A stretch of 64,000 nt of DNA from positions 1 through 64,000 of IMG/VR virus record IMGVR_UViG_3300025387_000012. One strand, written 5' to 3'. The stretch comes from a virus (lineage: Duplodnaviria > Heunggongvirae > Uroviricota > Caudoviricetes). This document shows positions 21,785 to 39,865 of the stretch, one piece after another. The notes below the pieces were generated by a model. That model was not told the DNA's origin. It did not search any database and worked only from the letters and a program-made list of their open reading frames with translations. The position numbers and the translations under genes are program-made. The first letter of the stretch is position 1; each line of letters begins with the position of its first letter.

Positions 21785-21790
21785 AGCTTC

Positions 21791-22123: not shown

Positions 22124-22620
22124 CGATGACAAGACACGCTCGCTACATCCGACTTCAGAAGATGACCCTCGACGAAGGGTTGGCATACATCTCTCGCCAG
22201 CACTATCGAAAGATCGGTGGCTTCTGGATTGAAAAAGCCTCAAAGCCCTCCAACACGCGGCTGCACATGTTCAAAAGCGGACAAACACGGTGCGTTAGCT
22301 GCGGGTTGGAGGGTTCTCTTTTCCACATTGAGCGTCACAAGAATGACAAGGTGATGCCCTTCTCCATCAACCTCTATGGGGTTAGGGATGGAGAGGAAAT
22401 CATGATGACGTGGGATCACATCCTCCCCAAATCAATGGGAGGATCGAACCACCTTTCCAACGCCCAGTGCATGTGCGAGAAGTGCAACCAGAAAAAGGGC
22501 ACCGACATCAGTCTCGCTGACCTGATCAAGCTTTCCAAAATCCAAAACTTCTTGGAAATCCATAAGGCGCTGCCTATGGAACCCGTCTTTACGTTTGAAG
22601 GAGAATACGATGTCGCTTAA
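22120..22620 (+). CDS. HNH endonuclease
   Basis: WDHILPKSMGGSNHLSNAQCMCEKCNQKKG HNH motif with zinc-binding Cys pairs (CVSCG...CEKCN). Confidence 0.7.
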   Translation: MTMTRHARYIRLQKMTLDEGLAYISRQHYRKIGGFWIEKASKPSNTRLHMFKSGQTRCVSCGLEGSLFHIERHKNDKVMPFSINLYGVRDGEEIMMTWDHILPKSMGGSNHLSNAQCMCEKCNQKKGTDISLADLIKLSKIQNFLEIHKALPMEPVFTFEGEYDVA

Positions 22621-23038
22621 CCCCATCTCAGTTTCGTTCGATGAACTGATCGCCGACAATCAGCACCATCCGCTCCTGCGTCTCATGTGCGTTCGTCTTA
22701 AGGAAGAACCCTACATGACCCTCGGCACCTACTTCAAGGGACTGTCGGACCGAGACCTGGACATGCTGGCTGGTCTCGTCGAGGTCGCCACTATAAATCT
22801 GGAACCGTGGTCCTATCAGCAGGTCACGGTGATGGCTGAACTTCTGTCTCGTGCGGAAGCCTGCGAGGCTGAGACCGTGGAGGGCATCAAGATGAACGCC
22901 CGCATGTTCTGCCTTATCACCACGGCCGCGAACCTCGAGCGAAAGGGAATGGTGGATGTCATTTGGGAACACGCGTCCTTCGGACCAGAGTTCCTGGACA
23001 AGCAGGTCGTTCGGCTAAAGTCCCAACCTTCCCAATAA
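22610..23038 (+). CDS. hypothetical protein
   Basis: GAAGGAGAA RBS before ATG 22610. Confidence 0.5.
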   Translation: MSLNPISVSFDELIADNQHHPLLRLMCVRLKEEPYMTLGTYFKGLSDRDLDMLAGLVEVATINLEPWSYQQVTVMAELLSRAEACEAETVEGIKMNARMFCLITTAANLERKGMVDVIWEHASFGPEFLDKQVVRLKSQPSQ

Positions 23039-23043
23039 AGCTG

Positions 23044-23071
23044 TTTACATCCTGGTCGGTCTGTGTATAAT
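23044..23071 (+). promoter_or_regulatory. promoter, conserved family (TTTACA-N16-TATAAT, TGT extended)
   Basis: GCTGTTTACATCCTGG. Confidence 0.6.
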
Positions 23072-23109
23072 CACCTTAACATTGATTATACCACAACGGA
23101 GAATGCTGA

Positions 23110-24075
23110 ATGTCCAACGTTGCCCTCCTCTCCTTTGACAGCCGGATGAACAAGTGGACCGCCATGCACAATGGCCGGATCCTTGCAGCTTCTCCCACCA
23201 AGGAATACATCGTTCGCAACATCCGCGAAGGTCGTTGCAACAAGGCCAATCTGGTGGGTGTGACTGACGTTCGCGAGGTTGGTGAAACGATCATCAACCA
23301 TCAGGGCCGTCAGGAAAAAGTGGATCGCTTCGGCATCAACGAGCGTTTCGACTTCCTCACGGACTTCGTGAACATGGTTGCGGATCGCACCTCTCCCTCT
23401 CTTCTGGTTACCGGCGAAGGTGGCCTCGGCAAGACCTACACGGTGATGCGCGCCCTCAAGGACGCAGGCCTCAAGAACGTTTCCTATCACATCAGCAATC
23501 TCGAAGAAGGCGATGTGATCTCCGAGGAAGAAAATCGCGAGCTCTACGCCGTCGTGAAGGGCTATTCCACGGCGAAGGGTCTCTATCGAACCCTCTACGA
23601 AAATCGCGAGCGCATCGTTATCTTCGATGACTGCGATAGCATCCTCCGCGATCCTGTGGCTCTCAACCTTCTCAAGGGCGCCCTCGACAGCTACGATGTT
23701 CGGACGATCTCGTGGAACGCCGAGAGCTTTGGTGACGATGATCTGCCCCGCTCCTTCGACTTTAAGGGCGGCGTGATCTTCATCTCGAACCTCCCCATCT
23801 ACAAGATCGATCAGGCTGTTAGAAGCCGCGCAATCAGCGTGGACCTCTCGATGAACACGCAGCAGAAGATCGAGCGGATGGAAGCCATCATCACGAGCGG
23901 CTCCTTCCTCCCTGAATACGACCTTCAGACCAAGCGTGAGGCTCTCACCTTCTTGGAAACCATGAAGGACGAAGCCAAGGAGCTCTCCCTCCGCACTCTC
24001 ATCTCCGTCACCAAGGTGGCTGCCCGTGCCGGCGATTGGAAGCGCCGCGCAGAATATCTCCTCACGGCAGTTTGA
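23110..24075 (+). CDS. P-loop NTPase of unknown function (paralog of 18470..19981)
   Basis: Walker A LLVTGEGGLGKTYTV, Walker B VIFDDCDS, FDFKGGVIFISNLPIYKIDQ block shared with paralog. Confidence 0.6.
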   Translation: MSNVALLSFDSRMNKWTAMHNGRILAASPTKEYIVRNIREGRCNKANLVGVTDVREVGETIINHQGRQEKVDRFGINERFDFLTDFVNMVADRTSPSLLVTGEGGLGKTYTVMRALKDAGLKNVSYHISNLEEGDVISEEENRELYAVVKGYSTAKGLYRTLYENRERIVIFDDCDSILRDPVALNLLKGALDSYDVRTISWNAESFGDDDLPRSFDFKGGVIFISNLPIYKIDQAVRSRAISVDLSMNTQQKIERMEAIITSGSFLPEYDLQTKREALTFLETMKDEAKELSLRTLISVTKVAARAGDWKRRAEYLLTAV

Positions 24076-24090
24076 TCTGAAAGGGATCGA

Positions 24091-24282
24091 ATGTTAAAAG
24101 TTCTCATCCACAACCCCAAATTCCCAAGGGATCGCTCGAAGGCAGTGGAGCTCACTCGTGAGCAGACCGTTGCCACCCTCGAGTACATCACCTCGGCTTT
24201 GAATGAGGGAAAGAAACTCAAGGAGGACACGGTGATCCAGCTTCTTCAGGAAGCTGGACTGCCAGTCAAGTTCGATGGGTAA
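24091..24282 (+). CDS. hypothetical small protein
   Basis: ORF 63 aa. Confidence 0.4.
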   Translation: MLKVLIHNPKFPRDRSKAVELTREQTVATLEYITSALNEGKKLKEDTVIQLLQEAGLPVKFDG

Positions 24283-24523
24283 GCCCAAACACGAAAACCT
24301 CTTTCTCCTCATGATCGAGCTGGCAGACGGTCGATTGATGTTGGCAAACGGCGGCCCAGACCGCCATAACAAAATCCTCGTCGCGCGAAAGGGAAATCGA
24401 GACGCTCTTGAAAAGATCGGGCAGCGTATCCTCGATGAAGGCCTGGCCATTGGCTACCAAATCCTGATCACGGCCTCTCCCCCTGTCCGCACCTACAACG
24501 TCGAGGAAGTCCAGATCAACTGA
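24275..24523 (+). CDS. hypothetical small protein
   Basis: ORF 82 aa overlapping upstream stop. Confidence 0.4.
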   Translation: MGKPKHENLFLLMIELADGRLMLANGGPDRHNKILVARKGNRDALEKIGQRILDEGLAIGYQILITASPPVRTYNVEEVQIN

Positions 24524-24556
24524 CCTGAAAAAGTTGGCGAACCCGCCTCTTTCCTG

Positions 24557-24584
24557 TTTACATCCTGACCGAACAGTGTAAGAT
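24557..24584 (+). promoter_or_regulatory. promoter, conserved family (TTTACA-N16-TAAGAT)
   Basis: CCTGTTTACATCCTGACCGAACAGTGTAAGAT. Confidence 0.6.
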
Positions 24585-24616
24585 AACACTATCAAATGAG
24601 CAACTGAGGTTCTCAA

Positions 24617-24823
24617 ATGCTAAAGTCGAAGACAATCTTTACCGTTCGGATCGTCTACAAAGGCGGTTACGTTCACGATTTTGAAGTCCTCGACTTCTCT
24701 GTCAAGGGTGGTTCCTATTCCTGGAATGCCCTAAGCGAAACCAACAAGCCCCTTCAGCTGGGTGCAGATGAAATCGCAGCTGTTTGGGTTGTCAGTAAGC
24801 GTACGAAGTACTACCTGTTCTAA
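24617..24823 (+). CDS. hypothetical small protein
   Basis: ORF 68 aa downstream of conserved promoter at 24557. Confidence 0.45.
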   Translation: MLKSKTIFTVRIVYKGGYVHDFEVLDFSVKGGSYSWNALSETNKPLQLGADEIAAVWVVSKRTKYYLF

Positions 24824-24860
24824 ACCCCTGATGAAAACCCCGATGAAAGGAACTACGACA

Positions 24861-25217
24861 ATGCCCACTCTCGCTGATCTGATCGCCACCTACAACACCC
24901 TCGCCGTTGCCGCTGGTCTCCCGACTCGCAAGGGCTTCGACAACAAGGCCAAGGCTCTGGCTGCCATCGCTGCTCTGCAGCCGGCTCCCAAGGCTGCTAC
25001 TCTTCGAGTTCGCAAGGCCGGCGCCATCCGCGCCAAGGGTCCCCGCGGCTTCAAGATCGATTCTCCGGCGTGGCTGCGGTCCATCGCGGCTGGTAAGGGT
25101 ATCGCTCTTTCGCCGAGCAACCTGCCGAAGCTGCTGGACACCGCCGATGCCAAGGGTATCACGGTTTCGGCCGATATGACCCCGGCGGATATCGCGGCTG
25201 CTATCGCGGCTGCCTAA
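24861..25217 (+). CDS. Ala/Lys/Pro-rich basic protein (histone-H1/AlgP-like composition)
   Basis: AGGAA RBS 8 nt before ATG 24861; KAKALAAIAALQPAPKAATLRVRKAGAIRAKGPRG low-complexity basic repeats; GC-rich codon usage; followed by strong terminator. Confidence 0.45.
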   Translation: MPTLADLIATYNTLAVAAGLPTRKGFDNKAKALAAIAALQPAPKAATLRVRKAGAIRAKGPRGFKIDSPAWLRSIAAGKGIALSPSNLPKLLDTADAKGITVSADMTPADIAAAIAAA

Positions 25218-25238
25218 GCCGAATCGGCTCTTTCGCGG

Positions 25239-25270
25239 AAGCCCCATTCGAAAGGATGGGGCTTTTTGCT
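25239..25270 (+). terminator. rho-independent terminator after Ala/Lys-rich protein gene
   Basis: AAGCCCCAT-tcgaaagg-ATGGGGCTT + TTTTGCT. Confidence 0.8.
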
Positions 25271-25342
25271 GCCTCGGGACTGGTCGTTGGCGAGGATAAA
25301 TACTGAGACCATCCATCTCGTCCAAGTTCGGTGCCAGCCCAC

Positions 25343-26110
25343 ATGACACGAAAAATAGCCGTTTGTCTCAGCGGCCAGCCTCGCACATGGAAGAAGTGCT
25401 ACTCGACGTGGTTCGATGTCATGGACGGCTGGGGTGAGGTGGATTATTTCTGCCATTTGTGGAACTACAATAGCGACAGCAGCCTATCACAGTATGAGCT
25501 GGGTGACACCCCAGACACCTTGATCACGGCTGAAGAGATGCATGATATCCGCGAGACCCTTCATCCCAAGAAGCTTGTGTTCCAACCTAAAAAGAACGAT
25601 GTCATTCTTGGTGAGGGATTGGCAAACCCTGTCGCACCATGGGCGCACAGCCAGTTCTACAGCATGTGGCGAGTGGCAAACCTGAAGCGTCAGTACGAAA
25701 TCGAAAACGATTTTGAATACGACCTGGTTGTTCGACTTCGAACAGACCTGGTGCTACAGCCAAAGTTCATGCCGCCCGTCATGGCTCCTTCAACGCTCTA
25801 CGCAGTCCACACCCAACCGACTGATCCAGTTTATGGGGTCCCTCGGATTGGAGACATCTTCTTCTTGTCAGATAGCCTAACGTTTGATCACATCGCAATG
25901 TTCTACCACAGCCTTCGCTACATTGATGCTGATCACGTACTCCCCGGAAAGCCAGAGCTTTATGCCTTCCCACCAGAGGTTGCGCTCTATTACTATTGCG
26001 TCATGTCAGGCATCGACATTCAGCCGCTAAACGCCCTCGACATTAAGGTCATGAGAAGCCAAGAGCATCTTGCCAGAGTTGGAAAACTGCACCCATATGA
26101 AACCGCTTAA
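25343..26110 (+). CDS. uncharacterised 'AVCLSGQxRTW' family protein, paralog 1 (candidate glycosyl/group transferase)
   Basis: Shares N-terminal KIAVCLSGQPRTW, central YDLVVRLRTDL and DDIxFxSDS blocks with 3 paralogs in window. Confidence 0.55.
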   Translation: MTRKIAVCLSGQPRTWKKCYSTWFDVMDGWGEVDYFCHLWNYNSDSSLSQYELGDTPDTLITAEEMHDIRETLHPKKLVFQPKKNDVILGEGLANPVAPWAHSQFYSMWRVANLKRQYEIENDFEYDLVVRLRTDLVLQPKFMPPVMAPSTLYAVHTQPTDPVYGVPRIGDIFFLSDSLTFDHIAMFYHSLRYIDADHVLPGKPELYAFPPEVALYYYCVMSGIDIQPLNALDIKVMRSQEHLARVGKLHPYETA

Positions 26111-26903
26111 GATCGCAGTCTGCCTCAGCGGCCAGTCCAGAACGTGGAAGGCTGCGGTGAAGGGTACGCTTCAGCACTTTTCATCAGACCACCATCAGTA
26201 CTTTTTCTTTGGGCACACATGGGATGAGAACTGCTGGAAGACCCTGTTCTCTGGCAACCGCGATTACATTTTTGAGAAGCTAGACGCTGTCGCTCTCGAG
26301 AAAGACATTCGCGAATCCATTCCGATGAGTGGGCTGAAGATTGACCCACAGGCCGGCTGGATCGTCAATGGGCAATGGTGCACATGGGCTCCTATGCTGA
26401 AGAGCACCATGCTAGCCAACCACATGAAGACGCAGTACGAGATCGCAAACAACATGATGTTCGATCTTGTCGTGAAGACCCGCTGGGATGCCCTTTACGA
26501 TCCGCGAATGAAGTTCGAAAGCTTCATCCCGCTTCACACTCACCCTAACGCTCTCTACTGCATGGCCTCCGCAGATTTTGCGTACGAGTACCGTTTGCCA
26601 GCCGTCGACGACATCATGTACTTTGGATCTTCTACCGCCATGAACGTCATTGACAGCCTTTACCACTACTACACCACGTGTCAGCTAAATAACTTTGTCG
26701 GCGTAAAGTTTCCTTCTCAGGTTCTAGACAAGACGGTAGGCGTAGGTGTCCTTCTGTATAAGTGGGCCACTCGTAAAAATTTGCTCCTTTCCACCGGCAG
26801 ATTTAGGACACCAGGGGTTATCCGCAAGAACGTTGAGCACATGAACTGGCCAGAAGATTACGAGAAAATGAAGCACGCTTACATCCACTTCGAGGCTGTC
26901 TGA
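26097..26903 (+). CDS. uncharacterised 'AVCLSGQxRTW' family protein, paralog 2
   Basis: MKPLKIAVCLSGQSRTW, FDLVVKTRWDAL, DDIMYFGSS; overlaps upstream paralog by 14 nt. Confidence 0.55.
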   Translation: MKPLKIAVCLSGQSRTWKAAVKGTLQHFSSDHHQYFFFGHTWDENCWKTLFSGNRDYIFEKLDAVALEKDIRESIPMSGLKIDPQAGWIVNGQWCTWAPMLKSTMLANHMKTQYEIANNMMFDLVVKTRWDALYDPRMKFESFIPLHTHPNALYCMASADFAYEYRLPAVDDIMYFGSSTAMNVIDSLYHYYTTCQLNNFVGVKFPSQVLDKTVGVGVLLYKWATRKNLLLSTGRFRTPGVIRKNVEHMNWPEDYEKMKHAYIHFEAV

Positions 26904-27802
26904 TGACGCACACGATTTTTGCAAATGGCGACAGCTGGACTTTCGGCAGTGAAATCGCAGCCCCCGAGTTCCTTGCTCCTGATGGTAAGGGTGTTGGCAT
27001 GGGCAATCGCTTTACCCATGAGGGTGCCGACTACCTGCCGCATAATGACTTTTACCGCATCCCAAGGGTCTGGCCGTCTCGCCTAGGTGATATGCTCGGT
27101 GACGCAGAGGTGATCAACAAGGCTTGGCCTGCTAGAAGCAATGATACTATCTACCGCTCCACAATGGAGTGGCTGCTGACGAACTACATCACGCCCGGCA
27201 AGGATGTGTCTGACCTGACGGTAATCATTGGATGGAGCAGCCTTGAGAGAAAGAACGTCATCTTCGAGGACTTCGAAGGAAAGCTGTTCGAGTACACCAT
27301 TTGGCCAGCCATGAACCAAACCCACTACTACGATCTGCCGATGGTCAAGAAGTATTTCCAGATGCACGTCACCCATCTTTGGACTCAGCGTGAGTGTCTG
27401 ACCCGCTTCGTAGAACAGAACTTGTCACTGCACCTTCTGTGCAAGGCACATGGAATCAAGCATCACTTCTTCAACTCCTTCTATGTTCCTCGTGGTGAAG
27501 GCGGCAACTTCCATAAGTGGAAGGACCTTGACATCGCAACAGCGATCAAGCAGCTTTACGATCACAGGACAAACGGTTGGCTGGAACCGAACTACAACGA
27601 TCTTAAGGAGGTAGGCCGCCTTCTTCAAATGTGGGAATCTATTCCTGAAGAAGTGTTCCTCAACAAGAGCACTGGACTAACCTTCAAGACGCATGTTGAG
27701 CAAAACCTGCCGCACGAGCTTAGGTGGTGCGGCATTCACCCAAGTCCAGAGGGTCATGAGGTCTGGGCAAAACACCTTCACAAGCATCTGTTCAATGGGT
27801 AA
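26903..27802 (+). CDS. SGNH/GDSL-like hydrolase/acyltransferase-fold protein, paralog 1
   Basis: N-terminal FANGDSWTFG (GDS block I) and C-terminal HPSPEGHEVWA (DxxH-like block V). Confidence 0.5.
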   Translation: MTHTIFANGDSWTFGSEIAAPEFLAPDGKGVGMGNRFTHEGADYLPHNDFYRIPRVWPSRLGDMLGDAEVINKAWPARSNDTIYRSTMEWLLTNYITPGKDVSDLTVIIGWSSLERKNVIFEDFEGKLFEYTIWPAMNQTHYYDLPMVKKYFQMHVTHLWTQRECLTRFVEQNLSLHLLCKAHGIKHHFFNSFYVPRGEGGNFHKWKDLDIATAIKQLYDHRTNGWLEPNYNDLKEVGRLLQMWESIPEEVFLNKSTGLTFKTHVEQNLPHELRWCGIHPSPEGHEVWAKHLHKHLFNG

Positions 27803-28577
27803 GCTGGTAATCTGTGGCGACAGCTTTAACGCTGGCATTGGATGTCGTGACCTCTTCACACAGCCATACGGGATTCTTCTTGCGCAGAAGCTGGGATATG
27901 ATCCTATCATTCTAGCTCGTGGTAGCGCTAGCAACTTCGCTGTCTATCTTCAGGCGAAGTGGGCAGCTGAACATATCGTCAGCGAAGGCGATGTCGTTGT
28001 CATCAGCGTGACGAGCTACGACCGCATTGAGTGGATCGCTGAAGGGAAGAGCAATGCTCACCCAGCAACTCTAGGCGCCAACAACATTAACTATCACCAG
28101 TACCCTCCGCACCACGGGTACTACGACACGCGCCACTATCCTTTCTACTTTGAAGGCCGTGAAGAGTATGACCCTAAGCTGCTCACAGAGCAGATTCCAG
28201 CGTTCGATGACTACCTTGGCATCCACAAGAAGAAGCACCAAGGCAGCATCCAGTACTACAAGCGCCTACATTCAGAACCAGTTCCTAAGATCGAACTGAT
28301 GCTCGACTACTGCATGAACGTGATGGACTACGACATCAAAAGGCAATACGACATTGGTTTGATCTTCATGGCTTACACCATGCTGAAGAGAAAGGGCATT
28401 CGCTGCATCGTGCTCTCACATGATGAGATGGTCAAAGCAATGGTCGGTGAAGACACGGTCAGCATCAACTGGGGCGAGTACACCCTCAAGTACCCTGACA
28501 CGATTGGCAGTGGTCATGCTTCTGAGGAAGCACATGTTGAAATCGCGGACATTCTCTATGAGCATCTTCAGCCATGA
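27795..28577 (+). CDS. SGNH/GDSL-like protein, paralog 2
   Basis: LVICGDSFNAGIGC block I; clear paralog of 28574 gene (ILARGSASNFAVYLQA vs NLGRGGASNYAIYLQA). Confidence 0.55.
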   Translation: MGKLVICGDSFNAGIGCRDLFTQPYGILLAQKLGYDPIILARGSASNFAVYLQAKWAAEHIVSEGDVVVISVTSYDRIEWIAEGKSNAHPATLGANNINYHQYPPHHGYYDTRHYPFYFEGREEYDPKLLTEQIPAFDDYLGIHKKKHQGSIQYYKRLHSEPVPKIELMLDYCMNVMDYDIKRQYDIGLIFMAYTMLKRKGIRCIVLSHDEMVKAMVGEDTVSINWGEYTLKYPDTIGSGHASEEAHVEIADILYEHLQP

Positions 28578-29350
28578 AGATGGGATTCTGTGGTGACAGC
28601 TTTACCGCCGGCATTGGGTGCATGAATCTCTATGAGCAACCATATCCGATTCTTACGAGCAAGCACTTCAATGCTAAGCTGACCAATCTTGGCAGAGGTG
28701 GCGCAAGCAACTACGCCATCTATCTTCAGGCCATTCATGCTATTGAGGAGGTCAAGGTTGACATTCTGGTCATTAGCATGACAAGCATGGATCGCTTTGA
28801 CTGGATCGCTGAAGGTCATGACGCGGAATACATCACCGCCAGAAACATTAACTATCATGACTACGCACCATTCAACTTCCCTCAGCCAAACCATGACAAG
28901 CCACTCGTTCACCCATTTGCAAAAGACCCAGAGTATGATCCTCTTCTTCTGTCTCAGAACGTATCGACGATAGTTGAAGCGATCAAGAAGCCAGACATAG
29001 CAGCGCTTGCGCTCAAGAAGGAACCAAAGGCCAAGCTAAAGAAGATTCTTGACTTTTATGCTGATGTTCTTCCATGGCACGTCAAGATCAGCTATGACGT
29101 CGGGCTGATGGCAGCTGCCTACACCAGAGCAAAGAAGGCTGGGATCAACTGCATCGTCATTGGCTTTGAAAAGGAACTCCTCGCCACCATTCCACCCGAG
29201 GATTTGATTAACCATAACTGGTTTGCCTTCAGCCACCAGTATCCTGATTCAATCAAGAGCATGCACGCGAGTGAAGATGGGCATCAAGCCTTCTCTGAGA
29301 CCCTTATCAAAAGGATAGAGCAAAATGGCTATCACAACTCTGTACGCTAA
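28574..29350 (+). CDS. SGNH/GDSL-like protein, paralog 3
   Basis: GFCGDSFTAGIGC block I; C-terminal ASEDGHQAF (DxxH block V). Confidence 0.55.
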   Translation: MKMGFCGDSFTAGIGCMNLYEQPYPILTSKHFNAKLTNLGRGGASNYAIYLQAIHAIEEVKVDILVISMTSMDRFDWIAEGHDAEYITARNINYHDYAPFNFPQPNHDKPLVHPFAKDPEYDPLLLSQNVSTIVEAIKKPDIAALALKKEPKAKLKKILDFYADVLPWHVKISYDVGLMAAAYTRAKKAGINCIVIGFEKELLATIPPEDLINHNWFAFSHQYPDSIKSMHASEDGHQAFSETLIKRIEQNGYHNSVR

Positions 29351-30146
29351 TGGCTGCTCTTGGACTGCGGGAGATGGAGTAGAGCAGGATCCTTTCTTCG
29401 TTGAAATGTTCCCCAACATGACTCCCGTTCAAAAGCGAAATGCTCTAGGCCTTGACATCGCCAACTACGCGTGGCCTCGTTACCTTGCTGAACGACTTAA
29501 CATTCCTAACGTAGTGAATGATGCGATCGGCGGTGGCAGTAACGCTCGCGCATTCCGAATGACCCTTGAATATGTTGCTAAGCTTACTGAAGAGCAAAGA
29601 GCTGAAACTCTAGTCATCATCGGCTGGACAACGATTGAGCGCGGTGAAATCTACCTTCACGGTGAAACGAGTGTTGAAGGTCAAGGTGGCCCAGGCTGGT
29701 ATCGCTTCAACGCTGGTCAACCATTCACTGCCTACTACAACTGCTTCAGCAAATCCAAGCTCCAAAACCTCAATAAATACCATGAGCTATATGTCACTGA
29801 GGTATATGACGACGCTGCTGCGATCGAGATGAACTTTCTTCAGGTGTTCAGCCTGAAGAACACTCTTGAAAATCTTGGCGTCAAGTATCTGTTTTTCTCT
29901 GCTCTGAATGGTGGTCTATCAGGACCTCACCCATCAGCAGAAGTAAAACAGAAAGACTTGATGTTCACGCCACTTCTTCGCTGCAACAACATCATCGATC
30001 TGAAGTATTCGTACAATAGGTTTGTAGTAGAAAAACGGCTACCACTGTCTTCATGCATTCATCCACTCATTGAGACCAACAAAGTGTGGGCTGAGTATTT
30101 GGATAATGAGCTGAATGCTCGCAACATCTTAGGAGATCCTTCATGA
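29325..30146 (+). CDS. SGNH-like protein, paralog 4 (divergent: Cys replaces Asp in block I)
   Basis: LYANGCSWTAGDG aligns with ANGDSWTFG of paralog 1. Confidence 0.45.
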   Translation: MAITTLYANGCSWTAGDGVEQDPFFVEMFPNMTPVQKRNALGLDIANYAWPRYLAERLNIPNVVNDAIGGGSNARAFRMTLEYVAKLTEEQRAETLVIIGWTTIERGEIYLHGETSVEGQGGPGWYRFNAGQPFTAYYNCFSKSKLQNLNKYHELYVTEVYDDAAAIEMNFLQVFSLKNTLENLGVKYLFFSALNGGLSGPHPSAEVKQKDLMFTPLLRCNNIIDLKYSYNRFVVEKRLPLSSCIHPLIETNKVWAEYLDNELNARNILGDPS

Positions 30147-30247
30147 TCGACTTCTTTAAGAACATCATCTACCAAATCAAGAGCAAGATTAAGTACCACC
30201 AAAAGATGAAAGAAATCCGCAAGAGGGACCCGTATATCTACAAATGA
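30143..30247 (+). CDS. micro-ORF (34 aa, Lys-rich) translationally coupled on both sides
   Basis: ATGA overlaps with both neighbouring genes fill the 97-nt gap exactly. Confidence 0.25.
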   Translation: MIDFFKNIIYQIKSKIKYHQKMKEIRKRDPYIYK

Positions 30248-30939
30248 TTAAGGTCATCAGCAAATCTTCATCTGATCAAATCTACGCCAACACTTCCTAT
30301 ATCTTCTACAGAAGCTCTGTTGAAAACGGAAGTCTAATCTTTGGTGGTAACTTTGACAGGCTCGTGTACGTCGTGGATGGTGCTTTTACCGTTCAGGGCC
30401 ACGCACTTGAGCCCGGCGATACGGTGCAAATCAAGGGTCGCGTAACGTCTGTTGATGGCACTGGCACGCTCTACGTAGCGCAAGCCGCCATCCCGCATGA
30501 AGACATTCAGCAAATCGTCAAGATCACCAGGGCAGGTGCTCACTACAAGGTAGTGAAGCCGTGGGGCCATGAGCTATGGCTCAACGGCGAAGGTGCTCCA
30601 TTCTGCGCGAAGAAGATCTTCATCAAGGCCGGAAATCAGACAAGCCTGCAGTACCACAACTTCAAGGAAGAGACCAACCTTGTAGAAGATGGTCAGGTTG
30701 TTCTTGTCACGCAAGCAGACATGTCTGTCGCCATCGATGATGTGCAATCGCAGCATCTCCAAGAAACCACATTCGCTGGTCCAGTCTGCTTTCACGTTAT
30801 ACCTCGCACCATTCACAGACTGCGAGCCATTACTGACCTTAACCTTTTCGAAGTCTCTACACCGCATCTCGATGATGTCATTAGACTTCAAGATGATGCT
30901 AATCGTTCACACGGACGTATAGATAGCGAGCACCAATGA
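30244..30939 (+). CDS. cupin-fold sugar(-phosphate) isomerase-like protein
   Basis: KPWGHELWL motif typical of type II phosphomannose-isomerase/cupin sugar isomerases; conserved His/Gln (SLQYHNFKEE). Confidence 0.55.
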   Translation: MIKVISKSSSDQIYANTSYIFYRSSVENGSLIFGGNFDRLVYVVDGAFTVQGHALEPGDTVQIKGRVTSVDGTGTLYVAQAAIPHEDIQQIVKITRAGAHYKVVKPWGHELWLNGEGAPFCAKKIFIKAGNQTSLQYHNFKEETNLVEDGQVVLVTQADMSVAIDDVQSQHLQETTFAGPVCFHVIPRTIHRLRAITDLNLFEVSTPHLDDVIRLQDDANRSHGRIDSEHQ

Positions 30940-32444
30940 AGACCGTCGTACTCCTCACCGCTGGCACTGGAACTCGGATGGGGAAGTATTCGAGCGTCAT
31001 CAACAAGACGTTGCTTCCTATCAAAGACAAGGCGATCATCTCTCACATTATTTCTCAGTTTGATGCTGACACCGAGTTCGTAGTTGCGCTTGGTTACAAG
31101 GGCGACATGGTCAGAACCTACCTTGAGCTTGCCCATGAGACATCCAAGTTTACCTTCGTTGAGGTAGAAGACTTCGATGGTCCCGGTGCAGGTCCAGCGC
31201 AATCCCTCATTCAGTGCCGCGACAAGCTCAACGGTCCATTCTACATCATCGCGTGTGACGCCCATTACGAAGGGCTAAACAACATTGATGAGAGCACCAA
31301 CGTTGTTTGCGTTGCGCCAGTAAGCATCGAGCTTTCGCCGGCCTACTGCAATGTTGAGCTAGATGGATCAAGAATATCCAAGATCGTTGACAAGCAGTAC
31401 TGCACGAGTGGACTGGCTGTCAGTGGTGCGTTCTTCATCAAGGACACCGAACCTTTCTGGAACGCTTTGACTGGATCTGAGCTCTCGACCGGATGGTCTG
31501 TCCTTGAGACCCACGCCGTCGAACTGCCATGGCACGACCTTGGCACCTTCGACAAGTACCAAGCCTTCTACCTTGAGAACTCTCCCTATGACTTTAGCAA
31601 GACCGATGAGTTCCTCTACATCATCAATGGTAGAGTGATCAAGTGGTTCAGGGACAAGACGATCACTGACAACCGCGTCCTCCGTATTCAGGGTCGTGAG
31701 CACCTCTTCCCAACGATTGACTTCCAAAAGGACGGCTTCTACTCCTACAAGTTTGTGCCAGGTGAAGTACTCTATCAGTGCGTTACTCCTCAAATCTTTG
31801 AAGACTTCCTGAAATGGATGTCGTTTGAAGTATGGCCAGTTCGTCGAAGCACAAGCGTCAGACTTACTAACGCAATGTGCCGTGACTTCTACTATACGAA
31901 GACCATGAAGCGCTTGGATATGTTCCGTGACAAGTATCCAGACTTCAACCCCAAAGTCATTAACAATCAGGTGATGAAGGTTGACATGGACAATGGGTTG
32001 AAGCTCATTAACTGGAAAGCAGTCTGTGAAGAAGAGATGTACCAACGCTCTGCCTTTATTCACGGTGACTTGCAGTTTGACAATGTCATCTACGATGGTA
32101 GCAAGTTTACCATCCTTGACTGGCGCCAAGACTTTGCGGGCAATCTTCAGGTTGGCGATCTCTACTACGATGCTGCAAAGCTGCTTGGTGGCATGATCCT
32201 TAACTACGACCTCATCCGTCAAAACCAGTTCAGATTTACTGAAGACGGCGACAGCTGCACCTTCGCATACACCGCGCGTCATGAGTATCAGCCCCTTCGC
32301 GAAAGACTTCAGCACCTGCTGCCAAGTCCTATCATCGACGATCTTATCACGATCATCTTCCTCAACATGGCCCCGCTGCACTCAGCTCCCTTTGACAAGC
32401 TGCTCTACTGCCTGGCATTGGAGCGTCTCAATGGACTTGCTTGA
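30936..32444 (+). CDS. bifunctional sugar-phosphate nucleotidyltransferase / APH-ChoK-type kinase
   Basis: N-term VVLLTAGTGTRMG (sugar-1-P NTP-transferase G-loop); C-term HGDLQFDNVIYDGSKFTILDWRQDFAG (Brenner motif HGDxxxxN + DxxF of aminoglycoside/choline kinase fold). Confidence 0.65.
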   Translation: MKTVVLLTAGTGTRMGKYSSVINKTLLPIKDKAIISHIISQFDADTEFVVALGYKGDMVRTYLELAHETSKFTFVEVEDFDGPGAGPAQSLIQCRDKLNGPFYIIACDAHYEGLNNIDESTNVVCVAPVSIELSPAYCNVELDGSRISKIVDKQYCTSGLAVSGAFFIKDTEPFWNALTGSELSTGWSVLETHAVELPWHDLGTFDKYQAFYLENSPYDFSKTDEFLYIINGRVIKWFRDKTITDNRVLRIQGREHLFPTIDFQKDGFYSYKFVPGEVLYQCVTPQIFEDFLKWMSFEVWPVRRSTSVRLTNAMCRDFYYTKTMKRLDMFRDKYPDFNPKVINNQVMKVDMDNGLKLINWKAVCEEEMYQRSAFIHGDLQFDNVIYDGSKFTILDWRQDFAGNLQVGDLYYDAAKLLGGMILNYDLIRQNQFRFTEDGDSCTFAYTARHEYQPLRERLQHLLPSPIIDDLITIIFLNMAPLHSAPFDKLLYCLALERLNGLA

Positions 32445-33237
32445 TGTAGTTAAAACGGCAGGTGACGAGATCATCTGCGCGTCCCTCAGCCAGAAGCCAG
32501 GAAAGTTTGGAGCGACCATCCACAACGCCGGCTTCAAGCACCTTGGCCTAAACTATCGCTATGTCGGCTGCGCCGAAACCAATATCGAGCGCGGACTTCA
32601 GATCGCCAGAGAGCATGGCGTTCGCGGAGTAGGCATCTCAATGCCATTCAAGGTCGCCGCCCTCAACCTTATGGACGAGGTTCATGATACAGCGCTGTTC
32701 GCTGGAGCAGTAAATACAGTCGTAAATGATAACGGTTGGCTGACGGGATACAATACTGACGTTGCTGGCTTTAGCGCTCTTGCAGAGGAAGCAAACCTCC
32801 AGCGAGACGATCGCATCTGCATCCATGGATCAGGTGGGGTAGCTAGAGCCGTTCTTGTTGCGCTCAAGGATTACTCGGACGTGTCTATCTACGCCAGAAA
32901 CCAGCGTGAAGCTGCTGTTCTTGGCGACAAGTATGGCCGTCCTGTCTACCACTTTACCCATCCTAAGCGTGAACACGGTGCGGTCATTAACTGCACTCCA
33001 GTCGGTATGAATGATGAAGTTATCAGTTTCATTGACCTTGACGCCATGACAAAGTTCATCGACGTAATCGTGAAAGAAACGCCAAACGTTAGAGCGGTAA
33101 GAGCAGCTGGAAAGCCAGCCTTTACCGGCGAGACTATGGCTCTTCATCAAGCGTTTGCCCAGTTTGAGCTCTACACAGGTGTTAAGGCCCCAACCGAAGA
33201 AATGGTAAGAGCCCTAAATGCTGCATCCCAAACTTAG
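32431..33237 (+). CDS. shikimate/quinate dehydrogenase (AroE)-like NAD(P)-dependent oxidoreductase
   Basis: SLSQKPGKFGATIHNAGFKHLGLNYRY, GISMPFKVAAL, GAVNTVVNDNGWLTGYNTDVAGF - canonical AroE substrate-domain motifs; Rossmann GSGGVARA. Confidence 0.6.
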   Translation: MDLLDVVKTAGDEIICASLSQKPGKFGATIHNAGFKHLGLNYRYVGCAETNIERGLQIAREHGVRGVGISMPFKVAALNLMDEVHDTALFAGAVNTVVNDNGWLTGYNTDVAGFSALAEEANLQRDDRICIHGSGGVARAVLVALKDYSDVSIYARNQREAAVLGDKYGRPVYHFTHPKREHGAVINCTPVGMNDEVISFIDLDAMTKFIDVIVKETPNVRAVRAAGKPAFTGETMALHQAFAQFELYTGVKAPTEEMVRALNAASQT

Positions 33238-33703
33238 GCACTTCGTTGTTGACGTCGATGGCGTCATGACTACCGGACAGTTCATCTACACAGCTGACGG
33301 AAAGGTAGGTAAAGTGTTTGGGCCACATGACAGCGACGGCCTAAAGCTTATCAAGCATCTCATCAACATCCAGTTCATAACTGCAGACCAACGTGGCTTT
33401 GACATCTCAAAGAAACGCATCGTTGATGATATGGGTTATCCGTTGACCCTTGTCACTGAAGCAGAGCGCGAGAGCTACATTGAGCAGCTCGGGTTTGACT
33501 TCACGGCGTTTATGGGAGATGGCTACTACGACGCACCTGTCCTTCAGAAGTGCGCTATTGGCATCGCTCCAGCCAGTGCGCGCTATGAAGCAAAACGCGC
33601 CGCACGTTTCATAACGAGTTCACGGGCAGCTGAAGGCGCCTTGATGGACGCGTGCATCTATCTCAAGGGTATCCTGACACATGAGTACGACAAAGAAGAT
33701 TGA
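33218..33703 (+). CDS. KdsC-like HAD phosphatase (sugar-phosphate phosphatase)
   Basis: FVVDVDGVMTTGQFIY (DxDGVxTDG), ITADQRGFDISKKRIVDDMG, FMGDGYYDAPVLQKC (GDxxxD) as in Kdo-8-P phosphatase family. Confidence 0.65.
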   Translation: MLHPKLRHFVVDVDGVMTTGQFIYTADGKVGKVFGPHDSDGLKLIKHLINIQFITADQRGFDISKKRIVDDMGYPLTLVTEAERESYIEQLGFDFTAFMGDGYYDAPVLQKCAIGIAPASARYEAKRAARFITSSRAAEGALMDACIYLKGILTHEYDKED

Positions 33704-34697
33704 ACTTGAAGTTGGCATCGGGCCTATGAGCCTTGAAGTCATCGACGCGGTAGTGAAGTACGCGAACAAGAGAGATCGTGACCTCATGCTTATCGCCTCG
33801 CGTAACCAAATCGAGTGCGAGACGCTCGGCAGCGGTTATGTTGGTGGCCTGCACTCGAAGACCTTTGTTGACTATGTTCGCGGTAGAGACATGGATCGTC
33901 GCGTAAAGATTTGCCGCGACCACTGTGGTCCATACCTTCACGCTGCTGAGAAAGGCATGTCATATGAAGAGGCCATGGAGCGCGTCATCGAAAGTCTGAA
34001 GACCGACATGACCTGTGGCTTCGATCTTATCCACGTCGACACCTCGCTTGCTCCAGACCCTTACAAAGCGGCTGAGCTTATGTTCTCGACCCTTGAAAGG
34101 TCTAAGCGCGATCTCGAGTATGAGTTCGGCACCGAGGACAACGTGGGCACAGCTGTCTCCGCAAAGAAGTTTGAGCACGACATTCTGTTCGTAAAGCAGT
34201 TCGTCAACCCTCGCTTCGTCGTTGGTCAGACCGGCTCGCTCGTTAAGAGCATCCATCAGGTTGGTACCTTCGCTCCTGACACCGTCAAGCAGCTGGTTGA
34301 AATCGCCAACAAGCATAGCGTGAAGCTCAAGGAGCACAACGCAGATTACATCTCGCACGCTGAAGTCAATGAGCGCAAGAAGCTTGGTGTTGGTGCTATC
34401 AACGTAGCACCAGAGTTTGGTGTTGCTCAGACGCAGGTCCTGATCGAGCTTGCCAACCGTTGGAGACTTGAAGATGAGCTGAACAAGTTCATGAAGGTCG
34501 TCGTCAAGGGTGGCAAGTGGAAGAAGTGGAAGCACGGCACCGACTGGGATGACAAGCTGAAGTTCCTTTCCGCAGGTCACTACCACTTCACATCTCCCGA
34601 GTACATCCGCCTGGTTGACATGATCAACCAAAAGGAAAAGTTCGGTGCGGCAGTCGAGAAGAAGATCTTCAAGCTGATCGACAACTATGCAAAATGA
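33681..34697 (+). CDS. GatZ/KbaZ-like (tagatose-bisphosphate aldolase/kinase family) protein
   Basis: Collinear motifs with GatZ: GIGPMSLEVIDAV, LMLIASRNQIECETLGSGYVGGL, ICRDHCGPY, LIHVDTSL. Confidence 0.55.
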   Translation: MSTTKKIELEVGIGPMSLEVIDAVVKYANKRDRDLMLIASRNQIECETLGSGYVGGLHSKTFVDYVRGRDMDRRVKICRDHCGPYLHAAEKGMSYEEAMERVIESLKTDMTCGFDLIHVDTSLAPDPYKAAELMFSTLERSKRDLEYEFGTEDNVGTAVSAKKFEHDILFVKQFVNPRFVVGQTGSLVKSIHQVGTFAPDTVKQLVEIANKHSVKLKEHNADYISHAEVNERKKLGVGAINVAPEFGVAQTQVLIELANRWRLEDELNKFMKVVVKGGKWKKWKHGTDWDDKLKFLSAGHYHFTSPEYIRLVDMINQKEKFGAAVEKKIFKLIDNYAK

Positions 34698-35464
34698 AGG
34701 TTGCGGTCTGCATAAGCGGTCAGCTTAGGACTGGCCTTCGGTGTCTAGAAAATCAAGCTCACTTCTTGAGAGGGCTTGATGCAGACTTCTTCCTACATAC
34801 GTGGTCTACCAACACCAACAAGCGCTTTCCTCGCGATCATGAAGAGACACCTGTACCTCGTCAGGTCATAAAGGACTATGTCTCTGCTCTGAAGCCAAAG
34901 CGCTGGACGTTTGAAGATCAGCACCTCAACTTTAGAGGTGGCAAGGACATCGCGCCAGTAGCCCTTCACTATTCTTGGATGAAGAGCGTTCAGCTCAAGC
35001 AAGAGCATGAGCGTCACACAGGTGTCAGCTACGACGCAGTCATCAAGATCCGTCCTGACCTTCTTCTCAGGCCAGAAAGAAATCCAGCGTCAAGCATTCT
35101 CGAGAAGGTTTATGGTAAGCGCAAGCTCATCATTGAAAACATTCCTGAGTGGTGGAAGGTTATGGATTGGCATGATGATGTCATGTGGTTTGGTGACAAT
35201 GAGACCATGAACATGGCGACTGAATACTTTCAGCAGACCTATGTCGAGCGCACCAATGCTGAAGCATTTGGCTTCTTCGCAGACAAGAGAGGTGTTGATG
35301 TTGATGGCACCTATGAGTTCTCTTATGCCGTCTATCGAAAAGAATGCGAGCACTTTGACCCAATGACTCAATATGAAGAGTGCTTCGAGTGCGAGACACA
35401 CTACACCAGTACAGCGTGCACAACCTTGGCAACACCTGAAGAATCTCCGGACTACTACTCATGA
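34694..35464 (+). CDS. uncharacterised 'AVCLSGQxRTW' family protein, paralog 3
   Basis: MKVAVCISGQLRTG, YDAVIKIRPDLL, DDVMWFGDNETM. Confidence 0.55.
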   Translation: MKVAVCISGQLRTGLRCLENQAHFLRGLDADFFLHTWSTNTNKRFPRDHEETPVPRQVIKDYVSALKPKRWTFEDQHLNFRGGKDIAPVALHYSWMKSVQLKQEHERHTGVSYDAVIKIRPDLLLRPERNPASSILEKVYGKRKLIIENIPEWWKVMDWHDDVMWFGDNETMNMATEYFQQTYVERTNAEAFGFFADKRGVDVDGTYEFSYAVYRKECEHFDPMTQYEECFECETHYTSTACTTLATPEESPDYYS

Positions 35465-36294
35465 GGATTGCTCTTTGCTACAGCGGCCAGATCCGCACAG
35501 GTCGAAAGTGCATTGAAAACCAGATCAGGTTTCTCGGTGAGCACGCGAAGGCTGACACCTTCCTCCACACGTGGACCCACAACTCCAATCGAAAGTTCCC
35601 AGGCATCCGCGGAATAACCAGGGTACCACAGGAGCAGATTGACAGCTACGTTCAAGAGCTGAACCCAATCGCTTCTTTGGTTGAGGATCCAATCGAGCGT
35701 GGTATCTACGCAGCTCACGCTGCTTACTGGCCGCCTGCTCAGTCTCTCTTCTATTCGTGGCGTGAAAGCATCCGCATCATGCACGAGTATGAAGAGCAGA
35801 TGGGAATCAAGTACGACGTTGTCGTCAAGCTGCGCCCCGACATTATCTTCTCAGATCGTTGGAGACTAGAAGACGACCTTGAAGCTGCCGCGAGTGGAAA
35901 GTTTCTCATTCCCAAGTTGACGCACAATCCAACTTGGATGGATGATGAAAGAATCTACGATGACTTCTTTGTAACTACTGGCGACAACATGCGCAAGGCT
36001 CTTGGCTTCTACACGGAAGCTTTTGAGGACAAGACAACAGGTCACATTAACTTCGGCAGATGGCTGCACGATAATGGCATGTCTCCTGAGATGCCGTCAC
36101 GCTCCGAGTTCATGATCTACCGAAAGGAAGCCCAGGACCTTAACCCAATGGTGGACTACGACAAGATCGCTGTAGGCCTTACGCGACTGCGAGCCACAGG
36201 CCCATTCTTCTACAACGATCCCAACGCTAGGGTTAACCCTGATGCCGCGGTCATTATCATCCAGCCTGGTGAAAGCGCCGACTATTACAAATAG
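35461..36294 (+). CDS. uncharacterised 'AVCLSGQxRTW' family protein, paralog 4
   Basis: MRIALCYSGQIRTG, YDVVVKLRPDII, DDFFVTTGDNMR. Confidence 0.55.
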   Translation: MRIALCYSGQIRTGRKCIENQIRFLGEHAKADTFLHTWTHNSNRKFPGIRGITRVPQEQIDSYVQELNPIASLVEDPIERGIYAAHAAYWPPAQSLFYSWRESIRIMHEYEEQMGIKYDVVVKLRPDIIFSDRWRLEDDLEAAASGKFLIPKLTHNPTWMDDERIYDDFFVTTGDNMRKALGFYTEAFEDKTTGHINFGRWLHDNGMSPEMPSRSEFMIYRKEAQDLNPMVDYDKIAVGLTRLRATGPFFYNDPNARVNPDAAVIIIQPGESADYYK

Positions 36295-36308
36295 GCTGTT
36301 TACAATCT

Positions 36309-36339
36309 CATCAAAGCGATATACGATATCCGAATGACA
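36309..36339 (+). promoter_or_regulatory. promoter, conserved family (TTTACA...TATACGAT)
   Basis: GGCTGTTTACAATC. Confidence 0.5.
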
Positions 36340-36879
36340 AAGAAACACTTTACGAGTGACCTGCATTTTGGTCACGAGAACATCATCAAGTACTGCAAGC
36401 GTCCATGGAAAAACGCAAGTGACATGGACGAGGCCCTCATCGCCAACTGGAACAACGTGGTTGCGGATGATGACGAGGTCTACATTCTGGGCGACCTATT
36501 CTTCTGTAACGAGAAGAAGGCGTCTGAACATCTGTCGCGGCTCAAGGGAAAGAAGTTCTTTCTTCCTGGCAACCACGACAAGATGCTGCGCAAGTCGAAG
36601 GTCATGCTCGACAAGTTCGACAAGATTCTTCCAGACCTGCACGAGGAGTCCATCGACGGCATTCACGTCGTCATGTGCCACTATCCGCTCCTCACATGGA
36701 ACAGAGCCTTTCGCGGTTCGTTCATGCTTCACGGGCACAGCCACAACAGCATTCCCTTCGACAAGAAGCTGCGGCGTCTCGACGTTGGTGTCGACGCGCA
36801 GTACTACGTCCCAATCGAGTGGGATGAGATTAAGCGTAAGCTGGAAAAGGTAGACCCGACGGACGTCAGGGACTACTAA
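36334..36879 (+). CDS. calcineurin-like metallophosphoesterase
   Basis: FTSDLHFGHEN (motif I DxH), ILGDLF (GDxx), LPGNHD (GNH[DE]); downstream of conserved promoter 36309. Confidence 0.65.
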   Translation: MTKKHFTSDLHFGHENIIKYCKRPWKNASDMDEALIANWNNVVADDDEVYILGDLFFCNEKKASEHLSRLKGKKFFLPGNHDKMLRKSKVMLDKFDKILPDLHEESIDGIHVVMCHYPLLTWNRAFRGSFMLHGHSHNSIPFDKKLRRLDVGVDAQYYVPIEWDEIKRKLEKVDPTDVRDY

Positions 36880-37469
36880 ACGACCTTCTTCATCCAGAAG
36901 ATTTTGCCGAGGTTGACGCGCTTAGGTGTGCCGTCCTTGCTCTCTGGCTGTGGGATGATTCCTGTCTGCTTCAGATCGTGGAAGAACTTCTCTGACAGGT
37001 TGCGTGCTCTTATGCCGCGTGGGAACACATTAACGGGAATCATTGAGTCATAGCCATTGACCGCGCCGATCGCGTTCACGCGTCCACGGCCCTCATGACC
37101 AACGATCTTGAATCGAAGCGGCTCACCTTGCTCGTACTCCTCGTCATTGAAGTCGGCTAGGAAGAATGGCGTTCCAACCGGCACCCTCTTGCGAATCAGT
37201 GCTTCCATCTTCTCAGCATCTTCCTTGCGATCAGCAGGCGTGGCGAGCTCAAGGAATGTCTTTGGTGACATGAAGACCGTAAAGCCCATGTAGTCAACGT
37301 TCGAGTTCAGCGGTACGTTGCCGAGACCTTTGTGCGTGTCGAACGCGACGTCACCTACACGAAAGCGGTCCTCGATGTTCTGTGGGCTTGGGTTCGGTAG
37401 CGCGTCAAACTCTGACTGGGTCAGGTAGTGCGGCTCTTCGTGCTGCTCGAAAAGTTCAGCTAGCTTCAC
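36876..37469 (-). CDS. hypothetical protein (GTG start, N-terminal VKLAELFEQ motif)
   Basis: GTGA start/stop overlap with upstream gene, GGAG 7 nt upstream; shares ELFEE-type N-terminus with two upstream minus-strand genes. Confidence 0.4.
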   Translation of the reverse strand: MKLAELFEQHEEPHYLTQSEFDALPNPSPQNIEDRFRVGDVAFDTHKGLGNVPLNSNVDYMGFTVFMSPKTFLELATPADRKEDAEKMEALIRKRVPVGTPFFLADFNDEEYEQGEPLRFKIVGHEGRGRVNAIGAVNGYDSMIPVNVFPRGIRARNLSEKFFHDLKQTGIIPQPESKDGTPKRVNLGKIFWMKKVV

Positions 37470-38894: not shown

Positions 38895-39143
38895 ATGTCC
38901 ACCGACCTTTATGATCTTATGCGTGAGCGCATTATCGATTTTTGTGGGGATGAAGCGGGTTGCCTTGGACGATCTGATCGTCTGAAGCCAATCGCCGACT
39001 TCATCCTCGAGGAGATGGACGCAAGCCCCAAGCCGCGTGGACGGCGAAAGCAGTTGGACATCTCTATCATCGAGAACTTCTCCGATGGACAAATCTTCCG
39101 CCTTTTCCAGCTGGTCGCGGCCCTCGAACGAGCGACCTCTTAA
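38895..39143 (+). CDS. hypothetical small protein
   Basis: ORF 82 aa. Confidence 0.35.
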   Translation: MSTDLYDLMRERIIDFCGDEAGCLGRSDRLKPIADFILEEMDASPKPRGRRKQLDISIIENFSDGQIFRLFQLVAALERATS

Positions 39144-39832: not shown

Positions 39833-39865
39833 AGCTCGACCTCCTAAAGCTTATTGGAGTTATTT

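Follow-up and report, generated by a model that had tools for sequence, protein, structure and literature searches.

Four paralogous GT-A-fold proteins of a viral glycan cassette are probable sequential glycosyltransferases

Phage glycosyltransferase islands as such are already known. In pelagimyophages and cyanomyophages, islands rich in glycosyltransferase and radical S-adenosylmethionine (radical-SAM) genes lie beside the tail fibres as 'host recognition clusters', and the papers describing them speculate, with no experiments, on modification of the host O-antigen (PMC7029224, PMC12801897). For UDP-arabinofuranose synthesis in RB69, DLP3 and HY126 (AfhE, AfhF), the architecture has been shown or proposed (PMC13326640). 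Enzymes of the GT-A fold that glycosylate 5-hydroxymethylcytosine (5hmC) in phage DNA also exist (JGT/TarP-like), and carry R...DDD...EDY/F motifs (bioRxiv 10.1101/2023.12.21.572611). We analysed 64,000 nucleotides of a virus of the Caudoviricetes (IMG/VR record IMGVR_UViG_3300025387_000012, positions 1 to 64,000; hereafter the window), in which four paralogous genes, A to D, lie between 25343 and 36294. A-D are probably sequential GT-A glycosyltransferases that build an oligosaccharide from a nucleoside diphosphate sugar (NDP-sugar) made by the same separable viral 'glycan cassette'. Their paralogy, fold, conserved residues, positional subtypes and the conservation of the cassette are established below.

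The open reading frame (ORF) listing holds the four genes on the plus strand at the coordinates given in the preliminary description of this DNA: A (25343..26110, 255 aa, 'A-type', GT-A fold), the first array member; B (26097..26903, 268 aa, 'B-type'), the second, overlapping A by 14 nt; C (34694..35464, 256 aa, 'C-type'); and D (35461..36294, 277 aa), a C-type duplicate that is 31% identical to C. Their proposed kinship was borne out by BLASTP, with all pairwise E-values between 2e-7 and 1e-38 (A/B 5e-19, A/C 2e-17, A/D 2e-14, B/C 2e-7, B/D 9e-12, C/D 1e-38) at 24-31% identity. A-D are true paralogs, their similarity being well past chance. Alignment of the four proteins gave 23 invariant columns, including those of an N-terminal A-x-C-x-S-G-Q-x-R-T, an F-x-H-x-W and a D-x-V-x-x-x-R-x-D. 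The N-terminal motif reads KIAVCLSGQPRTW in A, KIAVCLSGQSRTW in B, KVAVCISGQLRTG in C and RIALCYSGQIRTG in D; the K-I-A-V-C-L-S-G-Q-x-R-T-W motif first described is thus present in all four, but its final W is restricted to A and B. The central block, as Y/F-D-x-V-[VI]-[KR]-x-R-x-D, is common to all. A third block, DDxxxFG, is exact in B and C only, since D reads DDFFVTTGD and A reads GDIFFLSDS, and the sole invariant residue in it is the second Asp (D171, A numbering). A-D lack hydrophobic stretches, and most members of the family are acidic (median pI 5.9), which argues for soluble cytoplasmic enzymes.

Close relatives of these genes occur on other large contigs. A 285-kb contig carries a member of the cluster headed by P0001, a protein that is 98% identical to A, and a 331-kb ENA metagenomic contig (L001) has a 13-gene order identical to that of the window, with 74-83% protein identity for the three paralogs fully contained in its locus. 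These matches indicate that the genes are real, conserved and carried on jumbo-phage-sized genomes. A megablast search with window positions 25000-37000 found nothing among 50,697 phage records, and the cassette was seen only in metagenomes and in one unannotated record, 'Marine virus AG-345-E15'.

An AlphaFold2 model of paralog A, built from a 74-sequence alignment, reached a predicted local distance difference test score of 95.3 and a predicted template modelling (TM) score of 0.92. It consists of a single Rossmann-like alpha/beta/alpha domain with GT-A strand order. Foldseek against the PDB placed GT6 blood-group transferases on top, including BoGT6a (4ayl), at E ~1e-6 and a TM score of ~0.45; model and matches to GT-A glycosyltransferases together bear out the earlier guess of a GT-A fold. 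Among predicted viral structures Foldseek found nearer relatives (16-22% identical, with E from 1e-17 to 1e-12), every one of them 'uncharacterized', from Fadolivirus, Catovirus, Tupanvirus, a chlorovirus and the Synechococcus phages S-SKS1 (three copies) and S-PRM1; a Sylvanvirus 'DUF7796 domain-containing protein' was also among the viral matches. PDB sequence searches with profiles of 4 and 74 sequences returned chance matches alone (E>0.4).

A pattern scan of IMG/VR yielded 413 confirmed relatives of the paralogs, and 79 loci were fetched from it; clustering of the neighbouring genes left 55 non-redundant loci, many of them incomplete. Across these the cassette is collinear, with up to seven family copies followed by up to six SGNH proteins, of the esterase/acyltransferase type, and then by sugar-activation genes. 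SGNH paralogs adjoin the array in 52 of the 55 loci, and the cupin, nucleoside triphosphate (NTP)-transferase/kinase, SdhL-like and aldolase-like genes occur in 19-24 of them in constant order; the HAD phosphatase is optional and was found in few cassettes only. In the redundant set, 39 of 82 loci had a phmmer match to the cupin. Copy number of the family varies from one to seven per locus. The best matches of A are the first copies in other arrays, at 33-43% identity, above its paralogs in the window, and those of B are mostly the copies after the A-type one (30-35% for these, and 28-37% across all of the matches listed). C and D have each other and third-type copies as their nearest relatives, C matching third copies elsewhere at 27-31%. 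By sequence, then, the A, B and C types behave as positional orthologs across loci, and the subtypes are old and maintained. The earlier idea that such enzymes add successive residues fits old, differentiated paralogs kept in conserved order across many viruses.

Within the window, A to D form one operon-like block, in which the spacing between neighbouring genes runs from -26 to +19 nt, with one exception, a 97-nt gap. The two pairs stand around four SGNH-type and five sugar-metabolism genes, just as the preliminary description had it, but this bracketing is not the general layout: in most relatives the copies stand together as one array ahead of the SGNH genes, typically in the order A-B-(C)-SGNH array. 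The two flanking pairs are thus best explained by a move and a duplication of the C type in this lineage.

All genes between the pairs lie on the plus strand. The first and last of the SGNH-type proteins are of the DUF6071 type: S1 (26903..27802, 299 aa; Pfam DUF6071 E 2.5e-14), whose G-x-S nucleophile, Asn and His blocks are conserved in 89 relatives, and S4 (29325..30146, 273 aa; Pfam DUF6071 E 2.8e-17), with G-C-S in block I. The other two are of the GDS type: S2 (27795..28577, ~260 aa, its start re-assigned to the ATG at 27795) has a CGDSF...G.G block conserved in its cluster (cluster 3), and S3 (28574..29350, 258 aa; Pfam Lipase_GDSL_2 E 4e-4, below cut-off) conserves its GDS, Asn and D...H blocks. 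Ser, Asn and His blocks are intact in all four. The sugar-metabolism genes begin with a cupin resembling type II phosphomannose isomerase (30244..30939, 231 aa; Pfam MannoseP_isomer E 1.3e-5; NCBIfam GMP_PMI C-terminal region) and a 502-aa fusion of an N-terminal sugar-1-phosphate nucleotidylyltransferase with a C-terminal APH/choline-kinase-like kinase (30936..32444; Pfam NTP_transf_3 and APH; NCBIfam HddC, GlmU and G1P cytidylyltransferase-like matches). They continue with a shikimate-dehydrogenase-like (SdhL-type) oxidoreductase (32431..33237, 268 aa; Pfam Shikimate_dh_N and SDH_C), whose nearest PDB entry is 1npy (H. influenzae HI0607, SdhL; E 1e-45), and a KdsC-like HAD phosphatase (33218..33703, 161 aa; NCBIfam KdsC-phosphatase subfamily E 2.5e-12, below cut-off). 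The last is a TIM-barrel protein resembling GatZ/KbaZ and class II aldolases (33681..34697, 338 aa; Pfam GatZ_KbaZ-like E 9e-9, F_bP_aldolase E 3e-3; PDB 2fiq E 0.013). Scans of the block for sigma-70-like promoters and intrinsic terminators showed no enrichment. A calcineurin-like metallophosphoesterase gene follows paralog D by 39 nt (36334-36879, plus strand); it was considered as part of the cassette and set aside, as none of the 82 related loci has an equivalent gene.

Elsewhere, a 470-aa radical-SAM enzyme directly precedes the array in 51 of the 55 loci (e.g. L044:7796-9208), with a CxxxCxxC motif preceded by a Cys/His-rich N-terminal extension. This enzyme is not present in the window or in L001, and Ralstonia jumbo phage RsoM2USA (gp349) has the radical-SAM gene and the same flanking genes without transferase or SGNH genes. 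We therefore rejected the enzyme as a core part, and the same arrangement in RsoM2USA indicates that the cassette is a separable module. Farther upstream lie genes for tail-fibre-like proteins (Peptidase_G2 chaperone domain), GT7-LamG fusions, GT2-like proteins and methyltransferases, and a carbamoyltransferase gene often follows. One upstream structural gene has homologs in Atu_ph07, Phosso and ~350-kb Escherichia and Salmonella jumbo phages. A distant homolog of the paralogs in Synechococcus phage B23 sits among GT11, GT25 and glucose-1-phosphate thymidylyltransferase genes.

The donor, the chemistry, the order of action and the acceptor are inferred. The aldolase/GatZ-like protein, the cupin isomerase and the SdhL-like reductase would convert a central sugar phosphate to an unusual aldose phosphate. 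The kinase half of the fusion protein would phosphorylate it at C1, the HAD phosphatase would remove the distal phosphate, and the nucleotidylyltransferase half would make the NDP-sugar. GDP-heptose is made by a comparable GmhA-HddA-GmhB-HddC route, and the combination of fusion, HAD phosphatase and isomerase matches the logic of UDP-arabinofuranose and GDP-heptose synthesis; by this analogy the pathway would run from sugar phosphate through sugar-1,n-bisphosphate and sugar-1-phosphate to the NDP-sugar, probably of an unusual sugar. The A-, B- and C-type transferases would then add residues in turn, each being specific for its own linkage or acceptor, and so give a short oligosaccharide, which the SGNH proteins may O-acylate or de-acylate. 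A-D do adjoin nucleotide-sugar enzymes, as first described; genes for a nucleotidylyltransferase/kinase and sugar-phosphate enzymes share their operon and co-occur with the family in 19-24 of the 55 loci, a context that would suit sugar transfer from a nucleotide-sugar donor. Earlier proposed to be iterative, A-D are best read as GT-A enzymes acting in series; the analogy to glycosylated hydroxymethylcytosine (hmC) DNA that came with the proposal is unsupported as stated. As acceptor, a virion fibre or tail protein or another phage protein is our tentative first choice and a host envelope glycan a possible second, with phage DNA an unlikely third and other targets making up the remainder.

The active site of the family is unusual. 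R133, D135 and D171 are the same in 100% of 230 aligned members, and conservation is at least 95% at A6, C8, S10, G11, Q12, R14, D34, F36, H38, W40, Y126, D127 and R238, giving the signature A-x-C-x-S-G-Q-x-R-T ... D-x-F-x-H-x-W ... Y-D-x-V-x-x-x-R-x-D ... D ... R. The invariant residues are all kept in A-D; B alone is without D34 and keeps R14, H38, R133, D135, D171 and R238. The canonical GT-A D-x-D comes directly after strand beta4, which spans residues 128-133 in the model of A, with R133-x-D135 at its end. The 'DD' block was earlier taken for a possible DXD site; that assignment fails, as the beta4 end holds the invariant R133-x-D135 and D171 lies 36 residues downstream. D171 stands just ahead of a strand at 173-176, and hhalign alignments toward the xED region were non-significant; we regard D171 as a candidate for a catalytic or sugar-binding acid and not as the DXD. 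Comparison by hhalign with GT7-like, presumed GT8-like and GT2-like clusters from related loci was not significant, and a low-confidence alignment puts R-x-D on the D-x-D of the presumed GT8-like cluster (no Pfam match), which is suggestive only. Three further conserved basic residues, R14 and R238 among them, suggest that the diphosphate is held by arginine, and D135 and/or D171 may be catalytic or ribose/sugar-binding acids. By analogy the site is plausibly metal-independent, like that of BoGT6a or GT14.

Several points weigh against sequential glycosylation by A-D. No canonical D-x-D, E-D-D or D-x-H was found at the beta4 end in the 230 sequences, and the DXD-equivalent position was set by secondary-structure order and a non-significant profile alignment. 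Against Pfam DUF7796 (PF25072), A-D score 11-16 bits, below the 27-bit gathering threshold. The cassette has no acyl-donor enzyme, which makes the SGNH role conjecture. The missing DXD does not exclude glycosyltransferase activity, because metal-independent GT-A families without DXD exist, BoGT6a being an example.

Profile searches place the paralogs in a large family without a mechanism attached. PHROG 13607 was matched by A (E 1.2e-19), B (8.5e-6), C (4.8e-9) and D (2.1e-16), and 25 of 74 family members match DUF7796 at E<=0.01; both entries carry the label 'unknown function', so a match to them says nothing about mechanism. NCBIfam gave no match for A-D or the SGNH proteins. A database search with a four-sequence profile returned 87 proteins, 63 of them metagenomic relatives of 225-291 aa, many on contigs of 100-360 kb, and the remainder ~390-aa bacterial proteins, three flagged DUF7796. 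When 1.84 billion cluster representatives were searched exhaustively with the family profile, 11,188 matched at E<=1e-3 and 687 at E<=1e-30, and the family is spread over jumbo phages, cyanophages and giant viruses. Two proteins of 748-770 aa (P0107 and, at L084:33-2279, P0109) join a SAM-methyltransferase, DUF7796 and a paralog-family domain (family profile E about 1e-71 to 1e-73; DUF7796 100-124 bits), and in five others of 560-790 aa (P0095-P0097, P0101, P0106) the family profile matches two stretches, consistent with tandem domains. The methyltransferase fusions look like multi-domain viral glycan-building enzymes, and we count both kinds of fusion in favour of glycosyltransfer by A-D. As they match both profiles and A-D stay below threshold, the paralog family is best described as a divergent, virus-rich branch of DUF7796 and not a formal member. 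A bacterial DUF7796 homolog from Phenylobacterium is surrounded by regulators, an uninformative context, and literature searches found no papers on DUF7796/PF25072 or DUF6071/PF19547.

The alternative that survives best concerns the acceptor. The window carries, on the plus strand at 5905-16769, a probable DNA pyrimidine-hypermodification module: a divergent thymidylate-synthase (ThyA) homolog (5905-6675; Pfam E 4e-13), a Tmk-like kinase (9386-9994), a nucleoside 2-deoxyribosyltransferase-like protein (10254-10712), a T4 beta-glucosyltransferase-like protein (10721-11842; E 3e-15), a 636-aa protein resembling CofD (2-phospho-L-lactate transferase; 12967-14877), an IspD/CofC-like NTP-transferase (14808-15671), a guanylate-kinase-like protein (15644-16309) and a MazG-like pyrophosphatase (16224-16769). 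Judged by these genes, the phage very probably hypermodifies and glycosylates a pyrimidine. The CofD-like and NTP-transferase pair could install a phosphodiester-linked group, and the CofD-IspD-Gmk-MazG order is kept in L001.

A-D might accordingly lengthen a glycan attached to a hydroxylated or hydroxymethylated pyrimidine of phage DNA, primed perhaps by the upstream beta-glucosyltransferase-like enzyme, as in poly-arabinosyl-5-hydroxycytosine (RB69/DLP3) or gentiobiosyl-hmC (T2/T6). The window does hold the usual toolkit for pre-replicative pyrimidine modification and DNA glycosylation, the cassette's fusion and HAD phosphatase replicate the sugar-pathway architecture of arabinosylation, and GT-A enzymes that glycosylate phage 5hmC exist (bioRxiv 10.1101/2023.12.21.572611). 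We nevertheless regard this as unlikely. The two modules of the window lie about 8.5 kb apart (16769 to 25343), with unrelated genes between them, and within 10 kb of the match in other loci the queried DNA-modification homologs matched only in the two closest relatives, L001 (CofD-, IspD-, guanylate-kinase- and MazG-like genes) and L032 (MazG-like alone). The beta-glucosyltransferase-like gene was found in no other locus in those 10-kb surroundings, the thymidylate-synthase homolog not being among the queries. The cassette elsewhere stands beside tail-fibre-like and other glycan genes, and the R...DDD...EDY/F motifs of known DNA GT-A enzymes are not in the paralog family. That giant viruses and cyanophages have relatives speaks for a glycan or a protein as the target; glycosylated DNA is not known in either group. 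Isoelectric point was discarded as an indicator of a DNA acceptor, for the beta-glucosyltransferase-like protein is acidic too. A fuller version, in which the cassette would write an acylated oligosaccharide on DNA, started by the ThyA homolog and the beta-glucosyltransferase-like enzyme, extended by the A, B and C types and O-acylated by the SGNH proteins, seems more doubtful still; it would combine a rare cassette-made sugar with a glycosyltransferase family, metal-independent and with R-x-D, that CAZy does not yet list.

As to chemistry, the main rival keeps the fold but makes A-D nucleotidylyl- or phospho-sugar transferases, which would for instance activate or transfer units of sugar phosphate or alditol phosphate as in teichoic-acid-like polymers. 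G-x-G-T-R is an NTP-binding loop of the nucleotidylyltransferase type, which the S-G-Q-x-R-T loop after beta1 resembles; A-D also have several invariant Arg and no DXD, and the cassette reductase could yield an alditol phosphate. Yet a canonical nucleotidylyltransferase domain is already present in the cassette, and arrays of up to seven copies with positional subtypes and methyltransferase fusions typify glycan-building transferases and not activating enzymes, so we hold this chemistry to be improbable. That some or all copies are non-catalytic scaffolds, specificity subunits or decaying duplicates, as the wide copy-number range among loci (1-7) and the loss in B of the otherwise 96%-conserved D34 might hint, is very improbable given that A-D keep every invariant residue, their ORFs are intact and 74-83% conserved against L001, and the positional subtypes are old and maintained.

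Sequential glycosylation by A-D would matter in several ways. A GT-A assignment for a family of >11,000 clusters without a functional name would allow thousands of 'hypothetical' viral genes to be re-annotated, and the family signature with its invariant R-x-D points to an unusual, possibly metal-independent active site. The cassette, made up of a transferase array, an SGNH array and a self-contained sugar-activation module, appears as a discrete, transplantable unit. Whether its target is the virion, the host surface or DNA has consequences for the host range of phages, for superinfection exclusion and restriction evasion, and for the role of glycosyltransferase-rich 'host recognition' islands in marine and jumbo phages.

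The window has other features outside the cassette. Homing-endonuclease-like genes lie at 20038-20847, 21791-22123, 22120-22620, 39140-39832 and 48188-48814, with NUMOD3 and GIY-YIG assigned by Pfam and the rest by GIY-YIG-like or HNH-like motifs in translations only. A split type II topoisomerase comprises a GyrB/gp39-like ORF (39854-41818; from translation only) and a subunit-A-like ORF (43323-44699; Pfam DNA_topoisoIV E 1e-81), and the ~1.5 kb between them carry a reverse-strand ORF of 249 aa with no Pfam match. A 1402-aa ORF on the minus strand (509-4717) had no Pfam match at E<=0.001. A cell-wall hydrolase (Hydrolase_2; 57692-58264), a peroxiredoxin-like Redoxin (59651-60175) and a DnaJ-like chaperone (62975-63919) are also encoded.

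Literature searches did not find the organisation of this cassette, and a search for shikimate dehydrogenase, SGNH and glycosyltransferase in phage found nothing relevant. The structurally closest GT-A enzymes are those of GT6 (ABO GTA/GTB, BoGT6a), GT62 Mnn9, GT2 hyaluronan synthase and GT25 ColGalT1, to which paralog A is only 6-13% identical, with a TM score of about 0.45 and R-x-D in place of D-x-D. The glycan machinery of giant viruses and chloroviruses (PBCV-1 A064R, multi-domain glycosyltransferase plus methyltransferase) has no characterised member in the paralog family. JGT/TarP-like enzymes share with A-D a viral origin and the GT-A fold, and some extend a glycan as second or third enzyme. 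They are tied to 5mYOX or ThyS genes (bioRxiv 10.1101/2023.12.21.572611), and their DDD and EDY/F motifs were not found in the 230 sequences of the paralog family, which has R14...R133-x-D135...D171 instead. The arabinosyl-5-hydroxycytosine system is, like the cassette, phage-encoded and combines several successive transferases with a nucleotidylyltransferase/kinase fusion, an HAD phosphatase and a phosphosugar isomerase, and AfhE and RB69 gp52:53 have the same nucleotidylyltransferase/APH-like kinase fusion architecture as the 502-aa protein of the window (PMC13326640). The analogy to arabinosyl-cytosine phages drawn in the preliminary description thus holds for the logic of sugar activation (fusion plus HAD phosphatase) and stops at the transferases: the Aat enzymes match GT-B structures (PMC13326640), whereas the model of A is a single GT-A domain. 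The arabinosyl genes adjoin a ThyA homolog and use a SIS-type API as isomerase where the cassette has a cupin, and the SGNH, SdhL-like and aldolase-like genes, which the arabinosyl system is without, are all three present in the cassette.

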